Shown: positions 9,103-50,837 of the stretch, piece after piece
How positions within the stretch are numbered: the first letter of the stretch is position 1
Layout: every line of letters starts with the position of its first letter
NCBI GenBank assembly: GCA_965197885.1
Contig: OZ240231.1
Span: 845,501 to 909,500 of the forward strand
Reading direction: 5' to 3'
Length of the DNA stretch: 64,000 bases
Source: Thermodesulfobacteriota bacterium
GTDB lineage: Bacteria; Desulfobacterota_D; UBA1144; Nemesobacterales; Nemesobacteraceae
Position numbers and translations under genes: made by a program
Notes under the pieces: generated by a model
What the model was told of the DNA's origin: nothing
Database searches by the model: none
What the model saw: the letters and a program-made list of their open reading frames with translations, nothing else

Positions 9103-9542
9103 ACTATTTCCACTTTGCCTCCAGCGTCGCTTATCTTGCGCGCGGCCACCTCGCTGCAGGCATTAACCGTTATGGAAAGCGGCGCAGTGACCTGCCCGGT
9201 AGCCAAAAGCTTTACGGGCTTCTTGCCGCTCACTATTCCAGCCTCGGCAAGCGCCTGGATCGTCACCGATCCCGCGTCCGTGAAGCGCTCAAGATCCTTT
9301 AAGTTCACTATGTCGTACTGTTTTTTGAATATGTTCGTAAAACCCCTCTTCGGGCTTCTCATTTTGAGTGGAGTCTGACCGCCTTCAAACCACCGGGATA
9401 CCCCTCCCCCTGAACGGGACCCCTGGCCCTTATGCCCCCTTCCGCTGGTCTTCCCCTGAGAACCAGCGCCTCTTCCTACCCTTTTTCTTTTTGCCTTCGA
9501 TCCCTTAGTTGGTGAAAGTTCGTTTAACATTTTCCGCTCCAC
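9099..9542 (-). CDS. rplO: 50S ribosomal protein L15
   Basis: 147 aa. Gly/Arg-rich N-terminus KRVGRGAGSQGKTSGRGHKGQ. Start overlaps the secY stop. Confidence 0.95.
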   Translation of the reverse strand: MERKMLNELSPTKGSKAKRKRVGRGAGSQGKTSGRGHKGQGSRSGGGVSRWFEGGQTPLKMRSPKRGFTNIFKKQYDIVNLKDLERFTDAGSVTIQALAEAGIVSGKKPVKLLATGQVTAPLSITVNACSEVAARKISDAGGKVEIV

Positions 9543-9557
9543 TGCTAAGCGCGTGGC

Positions 9558-10151
9558 CTAACGAGCCGCGCCATAATAATTGGGAAGATCAAGATCCTTT
9601 ATCTCCTTGTTCCTCGCCTTCGCGATTTCTTCGGGAACCTGCAGTTCCGAGAACCCCTTTATAACGGCCATAACGACATTAAGCGGGTTTCTCGATCCTA
9701 CAACCTTGGATAGAACATCGTGTATTCCTGCAAGTTCAACCACCGCGCGCACCGCACCACCTGCTATAACACCCGTACCCGGGGCAGCAGGCAGAAGCAT
9801 AATCTTGCTTGACACATATTGCGTGCGGACTCCGTGGGGTATGGTGGTGCCGTTTCGCGGCACTCTTATAAGGCTTTTCTTGGCTTTCTCAACCGCCTTT
9901 CTGACGGCATCTGGAACCTCGTTTGACTTACCGAGGCCGGCTCCCACAACTCCATCGGAATTTCCGACTACGGCAAGAACGGTAAAGTGAAACCTCTTCC
10001 CCCCCTTGGTCACCTTCGCGACCCTCCTTATATGGACCACTTTTTCCTGTAATTCAAGTTCCGCCGGATCTATTTTATCCTCTGCCAAAATAAGAGCCTC
10101 CTTAAATTTTCTCTTAGAACTCCACTCCCGCCTCGCGGACTCCGTCGGCAA
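9558..10151 (-). CDS. rpsE: 30S ribosomal protein S5 (N-terminal extension; true start uncertain, ORF overlaps rplR by 38 nt)
   Basis: Contains ELQEKVVHIRRVAKVTKGGKRFHFTVLAVVGNSDGVVGAG..GTGVIAGGAVRAVVELAGI. Only 15 nt separate it from rplO, so no rpmD lies between. Confidence 0.93.
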   Translation of the reverse strand: MPTESARREWSSKRKFKEALILAEDKIDPAELELQEKVVHIRRVAKVTKGGKRFHFTVLAVVGNSDGVVGAGLGKSNEVPDAVRKAVEKAKKSLIRVPRNGTTIPHGVRTQYVSSKIMLLPAAPGTGVIAGGAVRAVVELAGIHDVLSKVVGSRNPLNVVMAVIKGFSELQVPEEIAKARNKEIKDLDLPNYYGAAR

Positions 10152-11046: not shown

Positions 11047-11439
11047 TCAGACCACCGTGCAGAGAATCTCCCCACCTATCTTTTTGTTCCTTGCGGCAAC
11101 CCCGGTCATTATTCCGTTTGAAGTTGAAAGTATTGAAATTCCCATTCCTCCCCTGACCCTTGGAATATCATCTTTGCCCACGTAAACCCTTCTCGATGGT
11201 TTGCTTATTCTCTTTATCTCCTCTACGGCAGCCTTGCCGTCAGGACCGTATTTCAGCTTGATTGTTATGGTTTTCTTTACCCCTTCTTCAGTGACCTTGT
11301 AACTCTCCACGTAGCCTTCCTCGGTAAGAACCTTAGCGATCTCGCCTTTTATAACCGAACCGGGAATCTCGACATGGCCGTGACCCGCCATGAAGGCATT
11401 CCTCACCCTGGTTAACATATCTGCAATCGGATCCGTCAT
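11047..11439 (-). CDS. rpsH: 30S ribosomal protein S8
   Basis: MTDPIADMLTRVRNA N-terminus. 130 aa. Confidence 0.97.
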   Translation of the reverse strand: MTDPIADMLTRVRNAFMAGHGHVEIPGSVIKGEIAKVLTEEGYVESYKVTEEGVKKTITIKLKYGPDGKAAVEEIKRISKPSRRVYVGKDDIPRVRGGMGISILSTSNGIMTGVAARNKKIGGEILCTVV

Positions 11440-11460
11440 TTTTTCTCCAAAATATGTTTC

Positions 11461-11646
11461 TTAAAAACTTGCCTTTCTAACGCCCGGAAGATGTCCCCTG
11501 CTGGCAAGAGACCTGAAACAGACCCTGCAGATACCGAATTTTCTCATGAAACCTCTCGGCCGTCCGCAAAGCCCGCAACGGTTAACCCCACGCACGCGAA
11601 ACTTTGGCTTTCTCTTCGCTTTCTCAAGTAACGCTTTTCTTGCCAT
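11461..11646 (-). CDS. rpsZ: 30S ribosomal protein S14 type Z (zinc-binding, 61 aa)
   Basis: 61 aa with a CGLCGRPRG...CRVCFR four-Cys motif. Sits between rplE and rpsH. Confidence 0.95.
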
Positions 11647-11658
11647 AATCCCTCTCTC

Positions 11659-12213
11659 CTAATTATTCACAAACGGCACTCCGAGACGGCTGAGAAGCTC
11701 CATGGCCTCAGTGTCCGTTTTTGAAGTCGTAATCAGACTTACGTTCATTCCCTTGTTGTACTGAACCTTGCTGTAATCTATTTCAGGAAAAACCAGATGC
11801 TCCCTTATCCCCAGAGTATAATTACCCGAACCGTCAAAAGACCGCGGTGAGAGACCCTTAAAATCCCTGACCCTTGGAAGAGCGAGATTCACCAAACGGT
11901 CAAAAAACTCATACATCATCTCCCCCCGAAGCGTAACCATGCAGCCTATTGGCTGGCCTTCTCTGAGTTTGAAACCCGCAACTGACTTGCGCGCCTTTGT
12001 AATCACCGGCCTCTGTCCCGTTATGTCCGCCAGTTCCGAGGCAGCGTTGTCTATTACCTTTGTCTGTCTCCCCGCTTCACTGAGCCTCCCAAGCCCCATG
12101 TTCACCACGATTTTCTCAAGCTTCGGAACCTGCATAACGTTTCCGTAGGAGAACTTTTCAATCAGCGCGGGTATGACCTCGCGCATATACAGAGTCTTTA
12201 TTCTCGGAATCAT
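11659..12213 (-). CDS. rplE: 50S ribosomal protein L5
   Basis: 184 aa. Contains [18 protein letters not shown]. Confidence 0.97.
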
Positions 12214-12217
12214 TTCC

Positions 12218-12547
12218 TCAGATTTCCTTTCCAGTTTTTCTGTTGTATCTCACTTTTCCACCGTCCTCGCCGGTTCTGTGCCCAATCTTTACCGGTGTTC
12301 CACTCTCAGAATCGTACAGCATCAGGTTTGAGACATGGATTCCAGCCTCTTTCTCAATGATGCCACCGCCAGGGTTTTTCTGCGTCGGACGGCTGTGTCT
12401 CTTTATGATATTGAGCTTTTCCACGAAGGCCTTTTCGGCACCCCTGTCAATTCTGAGCACTTTGCCGGTCTTCCCCTTTTCCTTGCCAGCAACTACGTAG
12501 ACCGTATCCCCGGCCCTTATATTAAACTTTCTCTTCCCAGTGGACAT
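12218..12547 (-). CDS. rplX: 50S ribosomal protein L24
   Basis: 109 aa. KOW motif [21 protein letters not shown]. Confidence 0.95.
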
Positions 12548-12549
12548 GT

Positions 12550-12918
12550 TCAGACAACCTCCGGGGCAAGCGAGATGATTTTCATAAAACCCTTGAGCCT
12601 CAGTTCACGAGCTATCGGCCCGAAAACTCTCGTGCCTATGGGTTCGTTTTCCTTGTCTATTATAACGGCGGCGTTATTATCAAAGCGCACATAGGTGCCA
12701 TCGGGCCTTCTCTGTTCCTTTCTCACCCTGACTATTACCGCCTTGTATATATTGCCCTTTTCCACCTTGGACTTCGGAATGGCCTGCTTGACTGAAACTA
12801 CAACCACATCTCCAAGCCGCGCATATTTTCTTCCCGACCCACCCAGGACCTTTATGCAGAACAGCTTTTTGGCCCCTGTGTTATCCGCCGAGTCCAGATA
12901 TGTGCTTGACTGAATCAT
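12550..12918 (-). CDS. rplN: 50S ribosomal protein L14
   Basis: [28 protein letters not shown]. 122 aa. Confidence 0.97.
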
Positions 12919-13859: not shown

Positions 13860-14559
13860 CGGTATCTATATTCTCAGGGGCCTTGTTCGCCCTCCCCTTT
13901 ACCTTTTTCTGTATTATCTCGCCTTTGAATATCCAGACCTTTACACCTATTACTCCGTATGTAGTCGACGCTTCGGCAACCCCGTAGTCGAGGTCTGCGC
14001 GGAGCGTTGCCAATGGCACTCTTCCTTCCCTGTACCACTCCCTTCTCGCTATTTCGGCTCCGCCGAGACGCCCGGAGACCATAACTTTTATCCCGAGAAC
14101 CCCAGCTCGAATGGAGGAGGAAAGCACCCTTTTCATGGCCCTTCTGTACGCAACCCTTCTTTCAAGCTGAAGGGCAAGGTTTTCCGAGACGAGCTGCGCG
14201 TCAGTTTCGGGCCTCTTTACTTCCCTTATATCAAGAAATATGCCTTTCCCGGTCATCCCCTGGAGTTTTTTCTTCAGTTGCTCTATCTCCTGGCCTTTCC
14301 TTCCTATGATGATCCCGGGCCTTGCCGCGTACACCAAAATCCTGACCTTGTCCGCCGCGGCCCTCTCAATCTCAATGTTCGAGATAGCCGCCTGATAAAA
14401 GGTCTTCTTTATGTAGTTGCGAATTTCTATATCCTCTTTGAGCAAGGATCTGTACATCTGTTTTTCGGCAAACCACCTGGAGTCCCACGACCTGGTTATT
14501 CCAATGCGAAATCCTATAGGATTAATTTTCTGGCCCAATTCAGAATCCCCTCTGTTCAA
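13846..14559 (-). CDS. rpsC: 30S ribosomal protein S3
   Basis: 237 aa. KH domain, [17 protein letters not shown]. Confidence 0.97.
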
Positions 14560-14878
14560 GTATTATCGTTATGTGACTCATACTGCTTTTACGGGCAAAA
14601 GCCCTTCCCATCGCTCTGGCCCGAAAACGTTTCAGTGTTGGGCCCTGCGTTGCATAGATTTCCTTTATGTAAAGGGCATCTATATCGCTGTATCCTTTTT
14701 CAGAGGCGTTGGCAACAGCCGACTTCAGCAGCTTCGAAATCAGCGGTGAGACCCTCTTGCGGGCAGAAAGAAGAATCGATGAAGCTTCCTCAACACCCTT
14801 GCCTCTTACGAGGTCAAGCACCACTCTGGCCTTCTTCGGCGATACTCTAGCATATTTATGTACTGCTTTAGAAACCAT
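14540..14878 (-). CDS. rplV: 50S ribosomal protein L22
   Basis: 112 aa. Contains [19 protein letters not shown]. Confidence 0.95.
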
Positions 14879-15177: not shown

Positions 15178-15192
15178 CCGAAGCTCCCGCGA

Positions 15193-16041
15193 TTAATCCA
15201 TTCCGTAGCCAATTCTTCTTGGCTTAACTATATATTTGTCCATTCTCTTGTTGTTTCTCGTCTTTTTTCCTATTGTAATCCAACCCCAAGGGGAAACAGG
15301 ATGAGGATTTCCCTTGGCCGCTTTGCCTTCTCCTCCCCCATGGGGATGATCAACCGGGTTCATAGCCACCCCGCGAACTGTCGGCCTTACCCCCTTGTGA
15401 CGTGATCTTCCGGCCTTGCCCCACACTATAAGCTCGTTTTCAGCGTTCCCGATTCTTCCTACGGTAGCCATGCACTTCAGGTGAACAAGTCTTATTTCGC
15501 CAGAAGCGAGTTTTATCTGGGCGTAGTTGCCGTCTTTTGCGGCAATCTGTGCAGATGAACCGGCGGAGCGGATTAGCTTTCCTCCGCCTCCAGGTCTCAT
15601 TTCTATATTGTGAACAACTGTACCCACAGGAATATTTTCTATGGGAAGAGCATTTCCGCTTGAAATCTCTACCCCGGGTCCGGAATTCAACTCATCACCC
15701 ACTTTAAGGCCCGCAGGGGCTATAATATATCTTTTTTCACCGTCAGCGTAGGTCAGAAGCGCAATTCTAGCCGAGCGATACGGATCATACTCCAGCGAGA
15801 CTACTCTGGCAGGTACGCCGTGCTTGTTCCTTTTGAAATCTATTATTCTGTAACGTCTCTTGTGACCGCCGCCTTTTCTGAAGCTGGTAATTCTTCCATC
15901 TGAGTTGCGTCCAGAGCTTTTTTTAAGTGAGACAGTAAGGGACTTGTGGGGCGTTTTGGAGGTTATTTCCTCAAAATCAAACCCGGACATAAACCTTCTT
16001 CCCGGAGATGTGGGGTTATATTTTTTTACTCCCATGATCAA
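15193..16041 (-). CDS. rplB: 50S ribosomal protein L2
   Basis: 282 aa. Contains [19 protein letters not shown] and [18 protein letters not shown]. Confidence 0.97.
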
Positions 16042-16325
16042 ACTCCCTCAAACAGGTTGATTTCTCCTTCTCTGAGTTTCACGTAAGCCTTTTTAACCGC
16101 TGATCTCTTTCCCACAACCCTGCCGAATCTTTTCACTCTTTTTCCAGGAAGTACAAGTGTTCTTACTCTGTCCACCTTGACGCCGAAAATCTTCTCAATT
16201 GAGTCCTGTATCTCTTTCTTATTGCACCTTCTGTCGACGGAAAAAACATACCAGCCGTTTTCTCTGGCTTCGGTGCTTTTCTCAGTCACTATCGGAAGTT
16301 TTATGATCGAGCGAGGATCTTTCAT
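16038..16325 (-). CDS. rplW: 50S ribosomal protein L23
   Basis: 95 aa. Sits between rplD and rplB. Start overlaps the rplD stop. Confidence 0.93.
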
Positions 16326-16942
16326 GAAAGTCTCTCCTGAATTTTTTCAACCGAATCCCGCACAATGACTATGTTCTTGTGCCTAAGCAGATCGTAGACA
16401 TTGAGTCCTTCATCTACCAGAACCTTTACGTCGGGTATGTTCCTTGCAGACTTACGGAGATTCTCGTTATCCGAACCGACAACCACAAGGGCTTTGGAAA
16501 ATTCGAAATCCTTCATGAATTTCGCCACCTGTCTGGTTTTTATTTCCGGAAGCTCTAAATTGTCGAGCACAACTATGGCACCTTCGCCGAAACGGCTTGA
16601 AAGAGCGGAAACAAGCGCCCCTTTTCTTACCTTTTTCGGAATTGAGTAAGACCAGTCTTTAGGCTTTGGTCCGAAAGTCACTCCACCCTTGCGCCAGATC
16701 GGAGAACGTCTGGATCCCGCCCTTGCGCGACCCGTGTGTTTCTGTTTCCAAGGCTTTGCCCCGCCACCGCGGACTTCACCTCTTGTTTTGGTGGACGCAG
16801 TCCCGGCCCTTTTTTTGGCAAGCTGCCAGTTAACGACTTCATGAAGCAGGTGCTTTTTCACCGGAGCTTCAAAGATCTCGGAGCGAAGCTCAATCGTTCC
16901 CACTTTTTTCCTGGCGATGTCGTATACATCAACTTGAAGCAT
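16322..16942 (-). CDS. rplD: 50S ribosomal protein L4
   Basis: 206 aa. Contains KPWKQKHTGRARAGSRRSPIWRKGGVTFGPKP. Confidence 0.95.
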   Translation of the reverse strand: MLQVDVYDIARKKVGTIELRSEIFEAPVKKHLLHEVVNWQLAKKRAGTASTKTRGEVRGGGAKPWKQKHTGRARAGSRRSPIWRKGGVTFGPKPKDWSYSIPKKVRKGALVSALSSRFGEGAIVVLDNLELPEIKTRQVAKFMKDFEFSKALVVVGSDNENLRKSARNIPDVKVLVDEGLNVYDLLRHKNIVIVRDSVEKIQERLS

Positions 16943-17573
16943 TTTTCGCCCCCTTTGACGTGTACCGGAGAAAAACCGTTCCTCCCACAGGGCCCGGAAC
17001 TGATCCCTTTACGAAAAGAAGGTTTCTCTCAACATCTATATCGACTACCTTGACACCCTGAACCGTTACATTCTTTCCACCCATGCGCCCTGGCATTTTT
17101 ATGCCTTTCCACACCTTGGCCGGGTATGAAGCCTGTCCTATAGAACCAGGTCTTCTGTGGGCCATACCACCGTGGGACATCGGTTGTCTTGAAAAATTGT
17201 GGCGTTTTATGGCTCCGGCAAACCCCTTGCCCTTGCTTTTAGCGGTGACATCAAGAACGTCTCCTACCTTGAAAATGTCAACCTTTACCACATCCCCTAT
17301 GTTGTAATCTTCAACTGTGGCGGAGAACTCTCTGAGTTTCGCGGTGGGATTCACCCCGGCTTTCGCGAAATGTCCCTTCATGGGGCGCGTAACCCGCTGA
17401 GGCTTTACATCTTCAAACCCGAGCTGGATGGCATCGTAGCCGTCTGAGTCCTTGGTTTTTTTAGAAACCACGGGGCATGGACCCACTTCAACGACGGTAG
17501 TGATGACCTTCACCATATCGTCGTTGAAAAACTCGGTCATCCCCCTTTTTCTTCCTATAAGTCCCTGAATCAT
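16929..17573 (-). CDS. rplC: 50S ribosomal protein L3
   Basis: 214 aa. Contains [13 protein letters not shown] and [20 protein letters not shown]. Confidence 0.97.
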
Positions 17574-17577
17574 ATTT

Positions 17578-17898
17578 TTACGAGCCCGTAAGTTTTATCT
17601 CCACTTCCACACCCGAAGCAAGATTTAGTTTCATAAGTTCGTCTATCGTCTGCTGGGTAGGTTCAAGTATGTCTACAAGCCTTTTATGCGTTCTTATTTC
17701 AAAATGTTCTCTCGAGTTCTTGTTCACATGAGGACCACGCAGCACACAGTACCTGTTTATACTGGTGGGAAGCGGAACCGGACCGGCTATCCTCGCACCG
17801 GTTCTCTTGGCGGTATCAACAATCTCCTCCGTTGAATTATCAAGAAGCTTGTAGTCAAAAGACTTAAGCTTTATTCTTATTTTCGAAGCTTTACCCAT
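17578..17898 (-). CDS. rpsJ: 30S ribosomal protein S10
   Basis: 106 aa. Contains [14 protein letters not shown] and [13 protein letters not shown]. Its ATG overlaps the tuf stop (TAATG). Confidence 0.97.
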
Positions 17899-19082
17899 TA
17901 TTCAATGATTTCGGTTACTACACCCGCTCCTACGGTTCTTCCACCCTCTCTTATCGCAAAACGAAGCTGCTCCTCCATCGCCACAGGCGCTATCAACTCC
18001 ACCTCCATGCTCACGTTGTCCCCCGGCATTACCATCTCCACCCCCTCCGGCAATATCACTGATCCCGTTACATCCGTTGTCCTTAAATAAAACTGCGGCC
18101 GATACCCAGGGAAAAACGGCGTGTGCCTTCCCCCCTCCTCCTTCTTCAACACATATACCTCAGCCTTAAACTTCCTGTGAGGCTTTATACTCCCAGGAGC
18201 CGACAAGACCTGACCCCTCTCAACCTCATCCTTCCCTATCCCCCTCAACAACACTCCCACATTGTCCCCCGCCTGCGCGTCATCCAGTATCTTCCTGAAC
18301 ATCTCCAAACTAGTAGCCACTGTCTTAGTCGTCTCTTTAAACCCTACTATCTCTATCTCCTTCCCCGCTACTATCCTCCCCCTCTCCACTCTCCCGGTTA
18401 CCACCGTGCCCCGCCCAGATATCGTGAACACATCCTCTATCGCCATCAAAAACGGCTTGTCCATCTCCCTCTTAGGCTCAGGTATGTATCCGTCTATGCT
18501 GTCCATTAACTCAACTATCTGCTCCGCTGCTCCTCCATCCCCCTCTATCGCCTTAAGCGCGCTTACCTTCACTACAGGTACGTCGTCCCCAGGAAATCCG
18601 TACTCACTCAACAACTCCCTTATCTCAAGCTCCACCAGCTCAAGCAACTCCTCGTCATCCAGCAGGTCAACCTTGTTAAGCGCCACCACTATGTACGGCA
18701 CTCCTACCTGCCTCGCTAGCAGTATGTGCTCCCTTGTCTGCGGCATAGGCCCGTCAGGCGCACTCACCACCAGCACCGCACCGTCCATCTGCGCCGCACC
18801 CGTTATCATGTTCTTTATGTAGTCTGCGTGCCCAGGACAGTCAACATGCGCGTAGTGCCTCCCGGCTGTCTCATACTCCACGTGCGCTATGTTTATCGTT
18901 ATCCCCCTCTCCCTCTCTTCCGGAGCCTTGTCTATGTTGTCAAACTCCACGTACTCCGCCTGTCCCTTCTTCGATAATATGTTCGTTATCGCCGCCGTTA
19001 ACGTCGTCTTCCCATGATCCACATGCCCTATCGTCCCTATGTTTAAATGCGGCTTCCCCCTCTCAAATCTTGCCTTAGACAT
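17898..19082 (-). CDS. tuf: elongation factor Tu
   Basis: 394 aa. Contains [14 protein letters not shown] and DCPGHADY. C-terminal beta-barrel domains present. Confidence 0.98.
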
Positions 19083-41776: not shown

Positions 41777-42016
41777 ATGGAAATGAGTCGAAGCAAAGAT
41801 ACATCACATCCAATTACTCACTGGTTCAGAAACGACCTCAGACTCTCGGATAATCCGGCGCTCGCAGAGGCAGCGAAATTCACTCGACCCGTAGTGCCGG
41901 TTTACATACTTGAAGACTCGGGGATTTCTTTAGGAAATACATGCCCTTTTCCTATTGTAGATCATATGAATGCTCGAAACCGTGCTCTGGAAATGTTCAA
42001 ACAACTGAGATGTTAA
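41777..42016 (+). pseudogene. phr: remnant of a deoxyribodipyrimidine photolyase/cryptochrome gene (N-terminal ~45 codons only, then divergent tail and stop)
   Basis: ITHWFRNDLRLSDNPALAEAAKFTRPVVPVYILED matches the photolyase N-terminal alpha/beta-domain motif (WFRxDLRLxDNxAL...V.PV.I.D). The ORF is 79 aa against ~470 aa for intact enzymes. Confidence 0.65.
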
Positions 42017-42167: not shown

Positions 42168-42195
42168 ATAAAAAAGCCCCCGAATGCGAGGGCTT
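42168..42195 (-). terminator. rho-independent terminator of tracrRNA (8-bp GC-rich stem, CAUU loop, U6 tail)
   Basis: Plus strand has ttataaaaaagcccccgaatgcgagggctt. Only the minus-strand reading has a U-tract. Confidence 0.7.
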
Positions 42196-42285
42196 GGTTC
42201 TCCTTGGAGATTACCTACGAAGCATTTGCTTCTTGTTATGAATAGCAAATTTCGTGGCCTATTCAGTCAGTTATAAACTTTCTGT
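42168..42285 (-). ncRNA. tracrRNA: tracrRNA for the type II-C CRISPR-Cas9 system
   Basis: Anti-repeat at 42233-42284 is complementary, with a 9-nt bulge and a G:U pair, to the minus-strand CRISPR repeat. Downstream on the minus strand come a GAAGCAAAUGCUUC hairpin (42219-42232) and a UCUCCAAGGAGA hairpin, then terminator hairpin AGCCCUCGCAUUCGGGGGCU + U6 (42168-42195). Confidence 0.8.
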
Positions 42286-42290
42286 GATAT

Positions 42291-42318
42291 ATTATACGAC
42301 TTAGATTAGAAAAAGCAA
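42291..42318 (-). promoter_or_regulatory. sigma70-type promoter for tracrRNA (-10 TATAAT 42291-42296, -35 TTGCTT 42313-42318, 16-nt spacer), inside the divergent cas9/tracr control region
   Basis: Minus strand reads TTGCTTtttctaatctaagtcgTATAATatatcac. Predicted TSS ~42284, a few nt before the anti-repeat. Confidence 0.55.
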
Positions 42319-42347
42319 CAAACGGTTGTAACTACGAGGGGTAACCC

Positions 42348-45300
42348 ATGAAGACTAAAGGATACGAATTCGGAGAATACTCAATAGGTTTGGATGTAGG
42401 AACAAATTCGATTGGCTGGAGCGTGATAAAAGAACAAAGCGGCAAACCCCAAGAATTTGTTGATTGCGGGAGCCGTATATTTGTCCGCTCGGTTGAAGAC
42501 AAATCCCCTACTCCGAAAAACAGGAAACGAAGGGAATCACGCCTTCAGAGAAGACAAATACAGCGTCGCAGCAGACGCAAAAACCGCCTCAGGAACTACC
42601 TGATTCTAAAAGGCTTTCTCCCTGAAGTACTAAAAAACAATCCAACTCCTGAGGAAGAACTGAACAAACTTGGAGACCCCTACATTATAAGAGCGAAAGC
42701 ACTGGATGAAGAACTGACTCCTTATGAATTTGGTCGCGCCATACTTCACCTAGGAACGAGAAGAGGGTTTCTGAGCAATCGCAAAACTTCGTTCGGTGAT
42801 CTAGGGAATGATATGAACGCTCGTGAGATACTCGAGAAGGAGGACGAAAGCACGAATGCAAAAGACAAAGAAGAGGGAAAACTCAAAGAAGAAATTGAAA
42901 AACTCAGAGAGAACATAGCCAAAGGCGGCGCGCGCACCTTGGGAGAATACCTTGCTGGGCTTCCGCGCAAGCGAAACAGAGGAGACTTTCATGATCGTCA
43001 TACCGACCGCAGGATGTACAACGAAGAGTTCTCCGAAATATGGAAAAAGCAGTCAGGCTATAACCCCCGACTCCATGATGAGAAAACAAGGAATGAACTC
43101 GAAAAGATCATCTTTTCTCAAAAACCTCTTAAACTAAAGCCGGACCGTGTGGGACGCTGTTCCCTTGAACCTAATCTGTCGCGGACAAGGCAAGGACGTC
43201 TTGAGTTCCAGCGTTTTCGCTACTGGCAGGATATAAATAACCTCTCTTACTATGACCCTGAAACCGGCGAAACGGGAATAGAATTATCAGAGGAGCAAAG
43301 AAAGAAACTCGCCGAAACCTTGGAAACAACAAGAGAGCTTACATGGGCCAAAATCAGGGCCCTGTTGGGATTAAACAAGAAAACGAGTTTCAACCTCCAA
43401 AAAGTTGAAGGCAAGAAAAAAGGTTTGAAAGGAAACCGTACTGCTCACGATATAGACGAGATCATTGGAGACAAGTGGAATTCCCTTAATGAGTCGGAAC
43501 AAGGCTTGCTGGTTGAGGATATCATCTCCTATACATCAAAGAAGGGACTGAAAAAACGTCTCACCAATCACTGGAATTTCTCCGAAGAGGAAGCAACTAG
43601 GCTCGCTGTGATGGAATTGGAAGAAGATCACGCAAGTCTCTCGCTAAAAGCAATAAGAAAAATCCTTCCCCACATGCAAGAAGGGAGAAAGTATAGCTAT
43701 AATCCGGATGATGCAACACAAGATGGCGCAATACAAGCCGCGGGGTACAAGGTTGAACCACCAGAGAGAGGGAATCTCGATATTCTTTCATCTCCACCTT
43801 GGATTCCTAATCCAATAGTTCAGAAAGCCCTTTATGAAATCCGCCGCGTTGTTAATGCGATTATCAGAAAGTACGGAAAGCCATCTGCGATAAGAATAGA
43901 AATGGCCCGTGATCTGGAGATGAACACAAAGAGATATAAGCAGTTTCTCGCGAGACAGAGTGAAAACACAAAAGCAAATCAAGAGGCGGAAGAACAATAT
44001 AGCGTTATCCGGGATAAAAATCCTCATTTGAACCTTCGCAGAAATATAAGCTATCAAGACAAGCTGAAATATAGGCTTTGGAAGGAAAGCGGAAGAAGAT
44101 GTGTTTACAGCGGAAAAAGTATAGGTATGACTGAGCTTTTTACTCATGCGACAGAAGTTGATCATATACTCCCTTACAAAAGTACTCTTGATAATTCATA
44201 CATGAACAAAGTCATTTGTCTTTCCAAAGAGAACAAGGAAAAAAGAGATCGAACTCCCTGGGAAGCGTTCGGCAACACATCCAGATGGGAAGAAATTCTG
44301 ATAATATCAAAGGATTTTCCAGAACCGAAAAGAAAGAGAATTTTAGCCAAAGAACTCCCCGATGATTTCATAAGCAATCAGTTAAATGACACACGTTACA
44401 TATCAAGAGAAACAGCAAAGTATCTAAGGAAACTGGGTTGTGATATAACTTTTACTAAAGGGGGTGTGACAAGCTGGCTACGTCATCAGTGGGGACTCAA
44501 CAGCCTGCTGGGAGGGAGTGAGGAAAAGAGCAGGAACGACCACAGACATCATGCTATTGACGCAACGGTGATTGCCCTTACAAATCGCAGTCTTTACCAG
44601 AAAATCGTTCATTTGGCTTCTGAATCTGAAGATGGTTCCGTATCACCGGAACATGGAATGGAAGTTCCTACACAGATTCCTGAACTTCGTGACGACCTAT
44701 CCGAACGCTTAGATAAATTGATAGTATCGCACTCTACTAACAGGAAACTGGCAGGAGCATTTCACGAAGAAACAGCTTACGGAATAAGAAGAGGGACTGA
44801 CGGAAAGCTTGGAGTTGTAGTCAGGAAAACGCTTACTAGCATGACAGACAGAGATAAAAGAAATATTGTCTGTCCGATAATCAAAAAAGCGGTTGAACTG
44901 TACGTATGGGAACGAGGTGGAAAAATAAAAGAAGCGATGAAGCGGTTACAGGAAGAACCTTTATTGCATCCAAGAACGGGAGATAAGATCCGACGGGTAC
45001 GCGTATGGGTATCAGAGATGCTGAATAGAGATTCCTATTGGGAGCACATAGCTCCGTGGAATAAAGATAAAGTTTTGCGCATTTTACCATATGGAAATAA
45101 TCACCATGTAGAAATATTAAGAAATCGTGAGAATGGAAAATATGGAGCTAAATTCGTAACTACCATGGAAGCCGCAAGAAGGGAAAGAACACTAAAACAA
45201 CCGATTATACAGACAGACCATGGAGAAGATTGGGAATATATAACTTATCTATGTATTAATGATACCGTGAGTATAGAGGAAAACGGAAAAAGGAATTCCT

Positions 45301-45494
45301 ATCGGATTCAAGTACTTGACCCAAACCAAAAAAGAGTAGTTTTAAGGCTTCATACAGCTGCAACATTGGAAAACAGTAACGAGAGAAGACTGAGAACCAT
45401 TTCAGTATTAATGAGAGATTTAGAAATGAGAAAAGAATCGATAGATGTGCTGGGATGTTCTTCTATCTCTAATAAAAGTGGAATGAATGATTAA
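42348..45494 (+). CDS. cas9: CRISPR-associated endonuclease Cas9, type II-C (1048 aa)
   Basis: RuvC-I YSIGLDVGTNSIGWSVI (D16). Arg-rich bridge helix RRESRLQRRQIQRRSRRKNRLRNYL. HNH VDHILPYKSTLDNSYMNKV (His ~606). RuvC-III HHAIDATVIALTN (~734-738). GAGGGG RBS 6 nt before the ATG. Confidence 0.95.
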   Translation: MKTKGYEFGEYSIGLDVGTNSIGWSVIKEQSGKPQEFVDCGSRIFVRSVEDKSPTPKNRKRRESRLQRRQIQRRSRRKNRLRNYLILKGFLPEVLKNNPTPEEELNKLGDPYIIRAKALDEELTPYEFGRAILHLGTRRGFLSNRKTSFGDLGNDMNAREILEKEDESTNAKDKEEGKLKEEIEKLRENIAKGGARTLGEYLAGLPRKRNRGDFHDRHTDRRMYNEEFSEIWKKQSGYNPRLHDEKTRNELEKIIFSQKPLKLKPDRVGRCSLEPNLSRTRQGRLEFQRFRYWQDINNLSYYDPETGETGIELSEEQRKKLAETLETTRELTWAKIRALLGLNKKTSFNLQKVEGKKKGLKGNRTAHDIDEIIGDKWNSLNESEQGLLVEDIISYTSKKGLKKRLTNHWNFSEEEATRLAVMELEEDHASLSLKAIRKILPHMQEGRKYSYNPDDATQDGAIQAAGYKVEPPERGNLDILSSPPWIPNPIVQKALYEIRRVVNAIIRKYGKPSAIRIEMARDLEMNTKRYKQFLARQSENTKANQEAEEQYSVIRDKNPHLNLRRNISYQDKLKYRLWKESGRRCVYSGKSIGMTELFTHATEVDHILPYKSTLDNSYMNKVICLSKENKEKRDRTPWEAFGNTSRWEEILIISKDFPEPKRKRILAKELPDDFISNQLNDTRYISRETAKYLRKLGCDITFTKGGVTSWLRHQWGLNSLLGGSEEKSRNDHRHHAIDATVIALTNRSLYQKIVHLASESEDGSVSPEHGMEVPTQIPELRDDLSERLDKLIVSHSTNRKLAGAFHEETAYGIRRGTDGKLGVVVRKTLTSMTDRDKRNIVCPIIKKAVELYVWERGGKIKEAMKRLQEEPLLHPRTGDKIRRVRVWVSEMLNRDSYWEHIAPWNKDKVLRILPYGNNHHVEILRNRENGKYGAKFVTTMEAARRERTLKQPIIQTDHGEDWEYITYLCINDTVSIEENGKRNSYRIQVLDPNQKRVVLRLHTAATLENSNERRLRTISVLMRDLEMRKESIDVLGCSSISNKSGMND

Positions 45495-46398
45495 ACGCAT
45501 TATTGAGGTCAGCAATCCGTCTTACCTTCATATGAGAGACTACCAAATGATTGTTGAGCAAAAGAAAAATGAGATCGAAAGGATCCCTATTGAAGATATG
45601 GGAGTCTTGATACTATCAAATCCGGCAATAACAATTTCCTCAAGCCTTATAGCATCTTGCCAGCAAAATAATTGCATTATTGTTTTCTGTGACGGCAAAC
45701 ATCTTCCTGTATCTATTCTCCTACCACTATCCGGGAACTCCATGCATAGTAAGATTTTAAATATTCAAACAGGCGTAAAAAAGCCGACAAAAAAACGCCT
45801 GTGGCAAAAAATAATAATCGCAAAAATAGAATCCCAAGCAAAAGTATTGCTCTCTTGCGGTAAAAATGCTTCCGCCCTTGAGTCAATGAAATCACGCGTG
45901 AAAAGCGGTGACCCAGATAATGTTGAGTCTCAAGCTTCAAGGGTTTACTGGCCTCTTATGTTTGGAAAGGATTTCAGGCGGGACCAGAAGGCTGAAGGCA
46001 CGAATTCTTTATTGAACTACGGATATGCTTTGCTGAGAGCCTCCGTTGCTCGTGCGATTTGTGGAACGGGGTTGCACCCCGCTTTAGGAATCCATCATCA
46101 CAATCAGTACAACCCGATGTGCTTAGCTGACGATCTTATGGAACCATTCAGACCTGTTGTTGACAGAAAAGTCTATAAACTATGGGAAAAAGAAATATTT
46201 GTCGTCAGCAAAAAAACAAAATCATTTTTGTTGTCCTTTTTAGCTGAGCCTTTGATATTCAGGGATAAGAAACTCCCGTTTATGGTAGCTTTGCAGTACA
46301 CCGCTACAAGCTTGAAGAAAGCTTTAACTGATGGACCGGAATCCTTAGAAATACCAAGGCTTGCAATCAAAGAACAACAGGAGATGTTTTTGATATAA
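45487..46398 (+). CDS. cas1: CRISPR-associated endonuclease Cas1 (type II)
   Basis: 303 aa. NSLLNYGYALLRASVARAICGTGLHPALGIHHHNQYNPMCLADDLMEPFRPVVD. ATG overlaps the cas9 stop by 8 nt. Confidence 0.93.
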   Translation: MIKRIIEVSNPSYLHMRDYQMIVEQKKNEIERIPIEDMGVLILSNPAITISSSLIASCQQNNCIIVFCDGKHLPVSILLPLSGNSMHSKILNIQTGVKKPTKKRLWQKIIIAKIESQAKVLLSCGKNASALESMKSRVKSGDPDNVESQASRVYWPLMFGKDFRRDQKAEGTNSLLNYGYALLRASVARAICGTGLHPALGIHHHNQYNPMCLADDLMEPFRPVVDRKVYKLWEKEIFVVSKKTKSFLLSFLAEPLIFRDKKLPFMVALQYTATSLKKALTDGPESLEIPRLAIKEQQEMFLI

Positions 46399-46400
46399 AA

Positions 46401-46730
46401 ATGATTTTCGGGGGATATAAAACTTTGTGGGTAATAGTAATGTTTGATCTGCCCACAGATACAAAGGCAGACAGACGCTCTTATACATTATTTCGCAAGT
46501 CTCTTCTTCAAGATGGCTTTTCTATGCTTCAGTTCTCCGTTTATATCAGACATTGCGCTAGTGACGAGAATGCATATGTACATTCGGGAAGAGTTCGTAA
46601 TGCTTTACCACCTAAAGGAGAAGTTAGAATCATTAATGTCACCGATAAGCAGTTTGAAAGAATGCAGGTTTTTTATGGAAAAAAACGAAAGAAAACTGAA
46701 AAGGCTCCCAAGCAAATATCTCTTTTTTAA
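46401..46730 (+). CDS. cas2: CRISPR-associated endoribonuclease Cas2
   Basis: 109 aa. VIVMFDLPTDTKADRRSYTLFRKSLLQDGFSMLQFSVY, a typical Cas2 ferredoxin-like core. Starts 2 nt after the cas1 stop. Confidence 0.9.
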   Translation: MIFGGYKTLWVIVMFDLPTDTKADRRSYTLFRKSLLQDGFSMLQFSVYIRHCASDENAYVHSGRVRNALPPKGEVRIINVTDKQFERMQVFYGKKRKKTEKAPKQISLF

Positions 46731-46780
46731 TATGCTTGGGAGCCTAAATCACCCGCCAACAAGGCACTTTGGCGTGAAGC

Positions 46781-48008
46781 ATTCTAACTGACTGAAAGGC
46801 CCCCGCTATTCACAACACGGAAGCCGAGATAGACTTCGAGCTTTTATTCTAACTGACTGAAAGGCCCCCGCTATTCACAACTGTTCCGCTGTCAGTAGTT
46901 TCCTTAGCTTATTCTAACTGACTGAAAGGCCCCCGCTATTCACAACTCTTTGTTTTATCGGATCCCAGAATCCCACATTCTAACTGACTGAAAGGCCCCC
47001 GCTATTCACAACGGTTATCGATCGGTCCAGGTGGACGATGGTATTCTAACTGACTGAAAGGCCCCCGCTATTCACAACCGTCAGGGCAGAGTCCTCAAGA
47101 ACTATCCATTCTAACTGACTGAAAGGCCCCCGCTATTCACAACTTACGCGTGGAGCATGATGCTGAAGATTCTATTCTAACTGACTGAAAGGCCCCCGCT
47201 ATTCACAACGCTTATAGATGTGGTTAATCCGGCTAACTCATCATTCTAACTGACTGAAAGGCCCCCGCTATTCACAACTATCACCCGGAGTTCCCCCTGT
47301 TTATCCATATTCTAACTGACTGAAAGGCCCCCGCTATTCACAACCGGTTCGGGCGGCAGAGATACGGAGGGGGATTCTAACTGACTGAAAGGCCCCCGCT
47401 ATTCACAACTTAGTATCGAATGATTGAAACTGAACCAAGATTCTAACTGACTGAAAGGCCCCCGCTATTCACAACAGAAAAGGGATAATCCTTATCATGC
47501 CATCGATTCTAACTGACTGAAAGGCCCCCGCTATTCACAACTGAATCTATACGATATTGTGATGGGTTCAAATTCTAACTGACTGAAAGGCCCCCGCTAT
47601 TCACAACAGAAAAGGGATAATCCTTATCATGCCATCGATTCTAACTGACTGAAAGGCCCCCGCTATTCACAACTGAATCTATACGATATTGTGATGGGTT
47701 CAAATTCTAACTGACTGAAAGGCCCCCCCACAACATTCACAACCCTTCTCGGTCCCGGTCCCGTGGCGGGTCCATCCTAACTGACTGAAAGGCCCCCGCT
47801 ATTCACAACCCGCGTGTATCTCTTCCAGAATCGCGCTTAATTCTAACTGACTGAAAGGCCCCCGCTATTCACAACACAGTATGCTTAGTTGCTTCGGGTG
47901 GGAAGGATTCTAACTGACTGAAAGGCCCCCGCTATTCACAACTATAGGCTTCGGATTCATCAACCTGGTCGAATTCTAACTGACTGAAAGGCCCCCGCTA
48001 TTCACAAC
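46781..48008 (-). CRISPR. CRISPR array: 19 direct repeats (36 bp; repeat 15 is a 40-bp variant, repeat 16 has one substitution), 18 spacers of 29-33 bp. Transcribed orientation inferred as minus strand.
   Basis: Plus-strand repeat ATTCTAACTGACTGAAAGGCCCCCGCTATTCACAAC at 46781, 46846, 46911, 46977, 47043, 47108, 47174, 47243, 47309, 47374, 47440, 47506, 47572, 47638, 47704(var), 47774(var), 47840, 47907 and 47973. Minus orientation begins GTTGTG like other II-C repeats and matches the tracr anti-repeat polarity. Confidence 0.97.
47476..47739. repeat. tandem duplication of a 132-bp block (spacer-repeat-spacer-repeat) inside the CRISPR array
   Basis: Spacers at 47476-47505 and 47608-47637 are identical (agaaaagggataatccttatcatgccatcg). 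Spacers at 47542-47571 and 47674-47703 are identical (tgaatctatacgatattgtgatgggttcaa). Confidence 0.9.
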
Positions 48009-48010
48009 GC

Positions 48011-48784
48011 TCAGAAAATCCCGCCTATCGATCTAACAAGACCCGCCTGAAGATGCGGTTTCGCATCCACAAAATCCAAGTTCGCCTTGTTGGCAACGCT
48101 TATAACTCTGGTCCTGTATATTTTCCATTTAACATCATCAGCATGAGAAGTCTGCTTGGTCCGCGTCGCAGTACCTTGAGATGCATCGGTATCTTCGCTC
48201 TGATAAACGAGTTCTCCTTCCCGGGCACGCTCCCTGATCTGAATATCGGTCACCATCGTGAAAAGATCATCCGTCACGAGCGCGTCAAAAATAAATCCTG
48301 CTATTCCGCCGGCGATTCCCCCAAGCACAGTGCCCTTGTTTATCTCATCAACATCTCCGCCTATGGCGCCTCCTATCACAGCTCCGACAACAGCGCCTTC
48401 GACCACACCTTGGTAACCCTCTCCAAGCATGGCATTTGTTTCCTTAAGATTGGTTTTTCCGACCTTGAGTATGTTGGCCTGAAGAATGAAAGTCGCCTCG
48501 GCCGGGTCTTCCGTGACCTTAAAACCGCTAGAGACTATCCTGCCCTTGATTCCGTACTCAATCCCGGGCAGTTCCTTGTCAGTCGTATTTTTTACGTCGA
48601 CGTAAACTACTCTCTCTTCGGGCGACACCGGTTCAAGAAAAATCGTCTCCGACATTTTAGTTTCAACGGTAAGTTTCCTTTTCTCGATAAGGGTCCTAGT
48701 TGCCGCGCAACCGTTTACAAGAAAAACAAAACAGATAGCTATAGCAAAAAACAGATTTTTTTTACAGGCAAGCTCTTTTCTCAT
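48011..48784 (-). CDS. traT: TraT-like outer-membrane lipoprotein (complement-resistance / surface-exclusion protein family)
   Basis: Signal peptide plus lipobox LVNGC. Extended similarity to F-plasmid TraT (KRKLTVETKMSETIFLEP..., ILQANILKVGKTNLKE, glycine-zipper GAVVGAVIGGAIGG, C-terminal YRTRVISVANKANLDFVDAKP). AAAGGAG RBS. Confidence 0.8.
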   Translation of the reverse strand: MRKELACKKNLFFAIAICFVFLVNGCAATRTLIEKRKLTVETKMSETIFLEPVSPEERVVYVDVKNTTDKELPGIEYGIKGRIVSSGFKVTEDPAEATFILQANILKVGKTNLKETNAMLGEGYQGVVEGAVVGAVIGGAIGGDVDEINKGTVLGGIAGGIAGFIFDALVTDDLFTMVTDIQIRERAREGELVYQSEDTDASQGTATRTKQTSHADDVKWKIYRTRVISVANKANLDFVDAKPHLQAGLVRSIGGIF

Positions 48785-49040
48785 TTATCAAAACTCCTTT
48801 GATTTTAGTGTTGGTGGAAAAATTTCCGCCTTCCGAACTAAAATCGTATGTAAAAAAAGAGGAAAAAACAAATGGAAAAAAAGAGTATGAAGGACACGCT
48901 CCACCCAGGCTTCCTTTCTCAGAAATACAAAACAAAGAATCACGCCTTAACCTTTTCTTGAAATGGTGTGAGAACCTTGCCAATGCAAATCAATCTAGTA
49001 TGATTAGCCAATTCTTGACTGCCGGGAGAACCACGTTTTC

Positions 49041-50837
49041 ATGCTTGAACTTATGGGAGAGTGGAAAAGATCGAATTTCTGCGGAGAGCTTGGGAAAAAG
49101 CACATTGACAGTTCCGTTACGCTCATGGGCTGGGTACAGTCCCGAAGAGACCACGGCGGGGTGATTTTCGTTGACCTGCGCGACAAGGACGGACTCTGTC
49201 AGATCGTTTTTAACCCGGAACGTGACCCAAAAATCCATCAGACCGCGGAGCAACTGCGGGACGAATGGGTAATCGCCATAAAGGGTAAGGTAACGCCGAG
49301 AACGGAGGAAACCATAAACCCGAACCTTAAAACCGGCGAGATCGAGGTCATAGCGCAGCAGGTAAAGGTTCTTAACACTTCAAAAGTAATACCGTTTCTT
49401 ATAGAAAACGAAGTGAACGCCGATGAGCTTCTGAGGCTGAAATACCGTTATCTCGACCTGCGAAGACCGCCAATGCGGGATAACATAATCTTCCGCCACA
49501 AAGTCGCCGCCGCGGTCCGAAACTACTTTAATGAAAACGGGTTTCTTGAGATCGAAACCCCTTATTTCACGAAATCAACTCCGGAAGGTGCAAGGGACTT
49601 TCTTGTTCCGAGTCGGCTTAACGAAGGGCAGTTCTACGCGCTCCCCCAGTCGCCCCAGATACTGAAACAGACCCTAATGATCTCGGGTTTTGACAGATAC
49701 TACCAGATAGTGAAATGCTTCAGGGACGAGGACCTAAGAGCGGACCGCCAGCCCGAATTCACCCAGATAGACATGGAAATGTCCTTTGTCTCAGAAGATG
49801 ACGTGATCTCCATTGTTGAAGGCATGATAAAAACGGTCCTTCAGGAGACGAAAGGAATTGATGTCCCCACTCCTTTTTTGAGAATGCCTTATGAAGAAGC
49901 CATGGAGAGGTACGGAACCGACTGCCCTGATACAAGATTCGCTCTTGAACTAAAAGACATCTCCTCCATATTCGAGAACTCGCAGTTCAAGGTGTTTCGC
50001 GGAGCCTTGGAAAAAGGAGGGGCGATAAAAGCGCTTAACCTTAAGGGAGGAGCCGGGAAACTCACCAGAAAGGAAATAGACGATCTTACCGAATACGCAG
50101 TCTCTCTCGGGGCAAAAGGGCTTGCATGGATAAGGGTCGGCGAGGATGGATGGAACTCTCCCATAGTGAAGTTTCTAAGCGAAGAGGAACGCGGGCTTTT
50201 AGCCTCCGCTCTCTTGATGGAAAAAGGAGACATAGTGTTTTTCGGCGCGGACTCCGTTGAGATGGTAAACCAGGTGATGTCAAACGTAAGGCTAAGCCTC
50301 GGTAAAACTCTTTCGTTTGTTGACGAAGAAAAACTTGAATTCCTCTGGGTAGTCGATTTTCCGCTTTTCAAGTACAGCCCCAAGGAAAAAAGACACGTCG
50401 CCGTTCACCACCCTTTTACCGCCCCCAAGGACGAGGATGTCGAAAAAATCGAGAGTTCCCCGGGGAGCGCCGCTTCAAAATCCTACGACATAGTCTTAAA
50501 CGGAGTTGAGATAGGAGGGGGAAGCATAAGAATTCACAGAAAAGACATACAGCAAAAAGTGCTTGACGCAATAGGAATCGGAGAGGATGAAGCACAGGAG
50601 AAATTCGGTTTTCTCCTCGAGGCCCTTGAATTCGGAGCTCCTCCCCACGGAGGCATAGCGCTCGGTCTTGACAGGATTTTAATGCTTCTGCGCGACGAAG
50701 AATCGATAAGAGACGTAATAGCTTTTCCCAAAACGCAGAAGGGCTCCTGTCCCCTTACAGAAGCCCCGTCTGAGGTTTCCCCGGAGCAGCTTCTTGAGGC
50801 AGGAATAAGCACTATTGCCAAAAAATCAGAAGATTGA
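49041..50837 (+). CDS. aspS: aspartate-tRNA ligase (start possibly at MGEWKR, nt 49053)
   Basis: 598 aa. N-terminal OB domain CGELGKKHIDSSVTLMGWVQSRRDHGGVIFVDLRDKDG. Class II motifs FRDEDLRADRQPEF and GGGSIRIHR...GLDRILMLL. Confidence 0.96.
   Translation: MLELMGEWKRSNFCGELGKKHIDSSVTLMGWVQSRRDHGGVIFVDLRDKDGLCQIVFNPERDPKIHQTAEQLRDEWVIAIKGKVTPRTEETINPNLKTGEIEVIAQQVKVLNTSKVIPFLIENEVNADELLRLKYRYLDLRRPPMRDNIIFRHKVAAAVRNYFNENGFLEIETPYFTKSTPEGARDFLVPSRLNEGQFYALPQSPQILKQTLMISGFDRYYQIVKCFRDEDLRADRQPEFTQIDMEMSFVSEDDVISIVEGMIKTVLQETKGIDVPTPFLRMPYEEAMERYGTDCPDTRFALELKDISSIFENSQFKVFRGALEKGGAIKALNLKGGAGKLTRKEIDDLTEYAVSLGAKGLAWIRVGEDGWNSPIVKFLSEEERGLLASALLMEKGDIVFFGADSVEMVNQVMSNVRLSLGKTLSFVDEEKLEFLWVVDFPLFKYSPKEKRHVAVHHPFTAPKDEDVEKIESSPGSAASKSYDIVLNGVEIGGGSIRIHRKDIQQKVLDAIGIGEDEAQEKFGFLLEALEFGAPPHGGIALGLDRILMLLRDEESIRDVIAFPKTQKGSCPLTEAPSEVSPEQLLEAGISTIAKKSED

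Follow-up and report, generated by a model that had tools for sequence, protein, structure and literature searches.

The stretch of DNA analysed here (the window, 64,000 nt of contig OZ240231.1) carries a CRISPR array that stops 2 nt short of traT, the chromosomal gene of a TraT-family lipoprotein. We interpret this arrangement as the result of insertion of a Neisseria-like type II-C CRISPR-Cas cassette beside a resident traT, in which the old, static end of the array came to touch the traT stop codon. The junction would then be a by-product of insertion and not a coupled system, a reading to which we assign a probability of roughly 0.78. An earlier note on the same DNA had proposed that CRISPR RNAs (crRNAs) could be made by read-through from traT, and that gene and array arrived together on one mobile element. 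The locus itself is an ordinary minimal type II-C locus, comprising a trans-activating CRISPR RNA (tracrRNA), cas9, cas1, cas2, a conserved 50-nt leader and the array:

42168–42284, minus strand: tracrRNA of about 115 nt, with a perfect −10 box TATAAT (42296–42291), an anti-repeat (42277–42235), two hairpins and a terminator (42195–42174) followed by a U-tract.
42348–45494, plus strand: cas9, 1048 amino acids (aa), intact, of a size that fits type II-C.
45487–46398, plus strand: cas1 of type II (NMENI class), matching PF01867 and TIGR03639 cas1_NMENI (293 bits against a cutoff of 120).
46401–46730, plus strand: cas2, matching PF09827 and TIGR01573.
46731–46780, no strand assigned: the cas2–array interval, 50 nt, conserved; candidate acquisition leader at the transcript-distal end of the array.
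46781–48008, minus strand: CRISPR array, 19 repeats of 36 nt and 18 spacers of 29–33 nt, its strand set from the tracrRNA.
47973–48008, minus strand: terminal repeat R19, which would be transcribed before all others and lies at the presumed oldest end of the array, with a −10-like box (47978–47973) that would start the crRNA of spacer S18.
48009–48010, no strand assigned: the junction gap, two nucleotides (GC) between R19 and the traT stop codon.
48011–48784, minus strand: traT, encoding a chromosomal TraT-family outer-membrane lipoprotein of 257 aa whose C-terminus (RSIGGIF) is unaltered.

The history of the locus can be read from its relatives, which are labelled Thermodesulfobacteriota or Candidatus Dadabacteria; the host of the window is a Dadabacteria-like bacterium. 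The order ech–era–[tracrRNA–cas9–cas1–cas2–array]–traT–aspS is common to the window and to the related loci L001, L002, L003, L015 and L016, the first three of which are from three genomes whose Cas9 proteins are 77–83% identical to that of the window and the last two from separate contigs. Two flanking features frame the comparison:

41777–42016, plus strand: photolyase remnant, an internally deleted 79-aa open reading frame (ORF) in which the N-terminal WFRNDLRLSDNPAL is joined to a C-terminal piece, with weak photolyase/cryptochrome matches at the N-terminus.
49041–50837, plus strand: aspS, encoding aspartyl-tRNA synthetase, the divergent and conserved neighbour of traT.

At the position of the remnant, a full photolyase of 483 aa is found in L003, L015, L006–L014 and L022, and in L003 and L015 the full gene lies immediately upstream of the tracrRNA. 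Loci without cas genes keep both aspS–traT and era–ech; in L006–L014 and L022 (extra dehydrogenase gene) the photolyase gene is convergent with traT, and in L004 and L005 an MNT/HepT toxin-antitoxin pair stands in the place of the cassette. Given that the photolyase is intact in relatives and a remnant in the window, the cassette appears to have inserted into the convergent photolyase/traT intergenic region of about 70 nt. These gene orders indicate that traT is the resident and the cassette the newcomer. The C-terminus of TraT is identical in all loci compared.

The cassette has also been lost. L004 and L005, with TraT proteins 96% identical to that of the window, have no cas genes and retain traT together with a fossil of the tracrRNA 3′ end, from which we conclude that the loss there was secondary. 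More generally, the stretch between the traT 3′ end and era is a variable hotspot that, depending on the relative, holds a photolyase gene, toxin-antitoxin modules, Fic genes or insertion sequence (IS) elements. It offers a clean example of a single chromosomal hotspot in which a CRISPR-Cas cassette has been gained, disrupted by IS elements and lost.

This history bears directly on the idea that traT and CRISPR-Cas form one mobile or functional module, surface exclusion joined to immunity, that was acquired as a unit. Both act against incoming foreign DNA and the two are adjacent in six related genomes. We nevertheless regard a shared arrival as extremely unlikely. Where a relative has no cassette, traT is nonetheless next to aspS, and a distant TraT (71% identity) is still encoded near aspS, so that synteny of aspS and traT persists with or without CRISPR and the cassette alone is variable; this refutes co-arrival on one mobile element as the earlier note had it. 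In Candidatus Mycalebacterium zealandia a cassette with a Cas1 66% identical to that of the window lies at an unrelated site, between genes for an aldehyde dehydrogenase and a BT1 transporter, with no traT, and the losses in L004 and L005 removed cas genes and left traT in place. Genes for conjugation or integrases are absent around the pair, whose neighbours are era, ech, aspS, sucA/sucB and recG. The G+C content of traT matches that of its flanks (0.45–0.52), whereas the cas genes are lower (0.38–0.44).

The strand on which the array is read follows from the tracrRNA, which lies within the 680 nt upstream of cas9 and points away from that gene. Its intrinsic terminator, recovered in a terminator scan, has nine stem pairs, six of them G–C. 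The element is conserved in eight loci (the window and seven related), and five stem pairs are kept despite changes on both sides. In each of the four loci tested, the anti-repeat forms a duplex of about 32 bp with the minus-strand repeat (−41 to −44 kcal/mol), compared with −5 to −11 kcal/mol for the plus-strand repeat used as a control, and the G+C-rich middle of the repeat varies among loci in step with the anti-repeat. Together the minus-strand promoter, anti-repeat pairing, hairpins and terminator identify the element as a tracrRNA and point to crRNAs from the minus strand. By tracrRNA strand and pairing, then, the array is predicted to be transcribed in the direction of traT and opposite to the cas operon, in agreement with the earlier note. 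In the crRNA sense the repeat reads GTTGTGAATAGCGGGGGCCTTTCAGTCAGTTAGAAT, and a −10-like hexamer, TAGAAT, ends every repeat.

Were the array transcribed from the plus strand, continuing the cas operon, the 50-nt interval would be a conventional promoter-bearing leader and traT a convergent neighbour. Such a reading would suit the leader-like conserved DNA on the cas2 side, and the degenerate repeats at the far end fit the classical orientation rule. It is very unlikely in our view, given that the tracrRNA promoter, the hairpins with compensatory changes and the terminator all lie on the minus strand and that the anti-repeat pairs with the minus-strand repeat only. In addition, the minus-sense repeat begins GTTGTG, like the repeat of Neisseria meningitidis. 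The arrays of N. meningitidis and Campylobacter jejuni are transcribed opposite to the cas operon, and for them the degenerate-repeat rule mispredicts the strand (PMC3737331).

With the array on the minus strand, the 50-nt interval beside cas2 falls at the 3′ end of crRNA transcription. The earlier note had called it leader-like, and its conservation bears this out: in an alignment of eight loci (A3) that spans the cas2 3′ end, the interval and the first repeat, mean column identity is 86%, and the interval is partly conserved even in Candidatus Mycalebacterium. DNA past the traT-side end of the array shows no conservation among loci. Imperfect or degenerate repeats are always distal to cas2 in the seven related loci L001, L002, L003, L015, L016, L018 and L019. 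The imperfect repeat is the last one in L001, L016, L018 and L019. In L002 the final two are imperfect, and one of these comes within 5 nt of the traT stop. The array of L015 has two repeats, of which the second is degenerate and 7 nt away from that stop, and in L003 a degenerate repeat sits between traT and the last good repeat. Degenerate counterparts of R19 are found within 60 nt after the traT stop in L002, L015 and L003, and weakly in L001. In the window, the mutated repeats R15 and R16 sit toward the traT end. Published work places spacer acquisition in type II-C systems at the 3′ end of the array (PMC12638026). Taken with the degenerate far-end repeats and the conserved 50 nt, this literature argues for a leader beside cas2 and for a traT junction that is the static, oldest end, so that spacers would probably be acquired at the transcript-distal (cas2) end. 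The earlier note was right that no leader exists at the traT end. Its absence is what the published type II-C mode leads one to expect and no anomaly, since such arrays normally lack one (PMC12477760, PMC3737331, PMC12638026, PMC7665894), and it does not call for read-through from traT.

Each crRNA most likely starts from the TAGAAT of the preceding repeat, a few bases into the spacer. Among related loci the terminal hexamer takes five forms (TAGAAT, TAAAGT, TAAATT, TAAAAT and TACAAT), across which T31, A32, A34 and T36 are invariant and positions 33 and 35 vary. As far as sequence comparison can tell, a −10 element would be conserved in just this way, and pairing with the tracrRNA, imperfect over these bases, provides no explanation for it. 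Our consensus sigma-70 scan demands a −35 match and so left the repeat promoters unlisted, which we did not count as evidence against them. Known type II-C repeat promoters are driven by the −10 box, and the box occupies the same position in the window repeat as in that of N. meningitidis. Type II-C crRNAs arise from repeat-embedded promoters and in N. meningitidis start at the sixth spacer nucleotide (PMC12477760; PMC5965381); an N. meningitidis allele with only the leader-adjacent repeat makes no crRNA (PMC12477760). Repeat promoters have been proposed as a means of escaping Rho termination of the untranslated array (PMC7665894).

The main alternative for crRNA production is that the array is promoterless and that pre-crRNA comes mainly from read-through of the traT promoter, giving a traT mRNA with CRISPR as a functional 3′ untranslated region. 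The geometry is suggestive. The traT stop (TGA, the reverse complement of 48011–48013) and the first repeat, which ends at 48008, are on the same strand, and the 2-nt gap reported by the earlier note is confirmed as GC; the same GC follows the traT stop in L004 and L006, relatives without cas genes. Neither a terminator-like site nor a stable structure was found between traT and the array (terminator scan; RNA fold z-score +1.4), and the repeat −10 box comes with no −35 and no full extended −10. However, no native traT terminator is recognisable in the CRISPR-less relative L006 either, so that the lack of one in the window says little.

Several findings lead us to consider read-through an unlikely source of crRNAs. 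Type II-C arrays are documented with repeat-embedded promoters, and a matching −10 box is conserved here. Adjacency of traT and CRISPR does recur among related loci, but in L001, L002 and L016 the array and traT are 1–3 kb apart, with insertions between them (Fic, encoded on the opposite strand, MNT/HepT or other DNA), and in Candidatus Mycalebacterium, which shares the repeat family, the tracrRNA and a partly conserved leader, traT is absent and the far-end gene points away from the array. Arrays that are displaced from traT or have no co-oriented upstream gene imply that the array family is independent of traT transcription. Moreover, an untranslated transcript of 1.2 kb would be exposed to Rho termination (PMC7665894). 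The read-through suggested by the earlier note is thus possible in the window, with no terminator in between, and not needed for crRNAs. Polymerase leaving traT probably enters the first repeats as an incidental by-product of insertion, and this would not be the promoter of the system.

A different role for such transcripts is a long shot: traT mRNA that routinely extends into the first repeats could be cut there by tracrRNA-guided RNase III with Cas9, which would set the 3′ end of the message and with it the stability. Selection could then be acting on the flush junction, which five related genomes retain or show traces of. If this were true, the CRISPR RNA machinery would control the stability of a host lipoprotein mRNA, and traT transcription would raise the level of crRNAs from the oldest spacers.

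Returning to the insertion of a type II-C cassette beside traT, the sequence of events was probably as follows. The complete cassette (tracrRNA, cas9, cas1, cas2, leader and array) would have entered the photolyase/traT intergenic region, so that the array's leader-distal end came to lie a few nucleotides past the traT stop. As in N. meningitidis and C. jejuni, transcription of the array would follow the minus strand, against the direction of the cas operon, and each crRNA would start at a repeat −10 box and then pair with the minus-strand tracrRNA. New spacers would enter beside the 50-nt leader next to cas2. The traT end would be the oldest and would not grow, hence a fixed junction. The sequences themselves show which genes are present, the 2-nt junction, the tracrRNA with its strand, the synteny, the degenerate repeats toward traT and the conserved leader; that the repeats act as promoters, at which end spacers enter and that read-through occurs are deductions.

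Some observations count against this account. The repeat R19, next to traT, is perfect and not degenerate, so the argument for an old end draws on the relatives and on the mutated R15 and R16. No spacers are common to different lineages (9 arrays, 98 spacers), and acquisition polarity can thus not be read directly. Four scans of viral contigs with the cores of the cas2-proximal spacers S1–S4 found no protospacers; there is consequently no protospacer-adjacent motif (PAM) and no independent check of orientation. The repeat −10 box has no −35 element and its extended −10 motif is partial: the full TGn of N. meningitidis is not present, and there is a G at −14 only. This leaves the strength of the putative repeat promoter uncertain. 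Finally, since no terminator follows traT, some read-through from traT into the first crRNAs could occur.

In its layout the locus is much like the type II-C systems of N. meningitidis and C. jejuni (Zhang 2013 and Dugar 2013, summarised in PMC5965381, PMC3737331 and PMC12477760). These share with it a minimal cas9–cas1–cas2 operon, a 36-nt repeat that starts with GTTGT and ends with a −10 box (−10-like in the window) of the TAnAAT type, an array antisense to the cas operon with degenerate repeats transcription-upstream and an acquisition leader, a candidate one in the window, transcription-downstream, and a tracrRNA that carries its anti-repeat 5′ and its terminator 3′. The window differs in that its host belongs to an uncultivated Dadabacteria-like lineage, its −10 box has no full TGn extension, its tracrRNA lies upstream of cas9 and is divergent, and a co-oriented host gene ends flush with the old end of its array, 2 nt away; furthermore, promoter activity and acquisition polarity are properties that we infer for the window. 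The comparison extends the Neisseria-type II-C architecture to this lineage and adds little new biology. It does carry a caution for annotation: in type II-C loci, a leaderless upstream end and an abutting host gene do not amount to transcriptional fusion or co-mobility.

The cas genes conform to this assignment. The reading frames of cas9 and cas1 overlap, and 2 nt separate cas1 from cas2. Neither csn2 nor cas4 was found between the tracrRNA and the array in the ORF list and Pfam scans, the cas genes there being cas9, cas1 and cas2 only. Cas9 has the RuvC_III, HNH_4 and Cas9_a domains (Pfam) and matches TIGR01865 over the full profile (E = 2e-202); the closest solved structures are Cas9 chains of 1055–1095 aa. 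A compact Cas9 of 1048 aa with a defined tracrRNA and repeat could be a candidate editing tool of minor interest. All three cas genes are intact, unlike cas9 in L002 and L003, which is disrupted by inserted elements.

The traT gene has an AAAGGAG Shine-Dalgarno sequence upstream of its ATG. The assignment to the TraT family made in the earlier note is upheld by a profile search against PF05818, in which the protein matches end to end (profile positions 2–214 of 214; E = 2.6e-68, 230 bits against a cutoff of 31). Its signal peptide leads to a lipobox (FVFLVNG, then Cys26 followed by AATR), and every homologue inspected keeps the LVNG|C motif, in which the N at position −2 departs slightly from the usual consensus. 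Residues 126–165 give weak glycine-zipper matches (Pfam). The protein matches chains of the solved decamers 9fs5, 9e2v and 9fsm with E of about 1e-43, in an alignment that begins at the lipobox Cys26, and is 34–43% identical to annotated plasmid TraTs over 94–100% of the length. In its full-length domain, its signal peptide with lipobox Cys, its glycine zipper and this level of identity, it resembles plasmid TraT of F and pKpQIL (9fs5, 9e2v, 9fsm; PMC11733297, PMC12658005). Unlike plasmid TraT, it is encoded on a chromosome beside aspS, with neither a tra operon nor traS next to it (every relative has aspS, era, ech and sucA/sucB as neighbours), and it scores well below the cutoff of the F-type TraT equivalog NCBIfam NF010291 (176.5 bits against 445). 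Chromosomal TraT genes are widespread in many phyla and in varied contexts, in lineages described by Seddon et al. 2025 (PMC11733297). Judged by its sequence, the TraT of the window belongs to these chromosomal lineages already described. A 249-aa ORF on the plus strand (window 48053–48802), antisense to traT and nearly coextensive with it, is most probably a shadow ORF produced by the frame of traT.

The array merits a few further remarks. Its repeat pattern would be expected to match 0.03 times by chance. Rfam gave no match anywhere in the window at the gathering threshold, and neither the repeat nor the tracrRNA is in a curated family. When JGI metagenome contigs were scanned for a degenerate form of the repeat, in which 24 bases were specified, nothing matched. 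Looked up by exact sequence, TraT and Cas2 of the window had no entry in the collection. Within the array there is an exact tandem duplication of 132 nt (window 47440–47703) that comprises two repeat–spacer units, such that S11 equals S13 and S12 equals S14. R15 (47704–47743), right after the duplication, is 40 nt long and has CCACAAC in place of GCT, and R16 carries a T-to-C change at 47776, within the −10-like box.

The fossil in L004 (1668–1790) and L005 (about 2160–2290) consists of the 3′ half of a repeat, then GTTGTGGATAG, a 12-nt loop and TTATTCATAAC, and then the tracrRNA tail and terminator. The 5′ part of the repeat is fused to the 3′ part of the anti-repeat, forming a hairpin like that of a single-guide RNA. 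We considered a simple homologous deletion between repeat and anti-repeat as the route of loss and rejected it, as the two are inverted relative to each other on the chromosome.

Mobile elements have entered related cassettes at several points. In L003 an IS110 transposase lies inside cas9 (11191–12777), and in L002 a UPF0236-type element does so (8193–10001). Two arrays are interrupted, that of L002 by an IS21 element (IstA/IstB; 15213–18212) and that of L001 by a MULE-like element (15188–17941).

Read on the plus strand, the anti-repeat is itself repeat-like and ends in TATAAA (42272–42277), about 70 nt 5′ of the cas9 ATG. The cas9 gene may thus have a promoter derived from a repeat, in overlap with the start of the tracrRNA (window 42270–42347, plus strand).

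Spacers of related arrays show matches among the relatives themselves. Spacer S23 of L001 (18635–18664), among the oldest, has 28/28 identity to aspS of L016. Spacer S5 of L016 (12192–12221), also among the oldest, matches the MNT/HepT module of L016 itself at 27 of 30 positions, with the mismatches PAM-proximal, and that of L001 at 29 of 30. These old spacers may target DNA of related strains or the inserted toxin-antitoxin module. In L002, spacers S3 and S7 of one array (14289–14318 and 14553–14582) are variants of one target sequence, with an exact 18-nt match in common and a few differing bases elsewhere. This suggests repeated acquisition against diverging versions of one invader.

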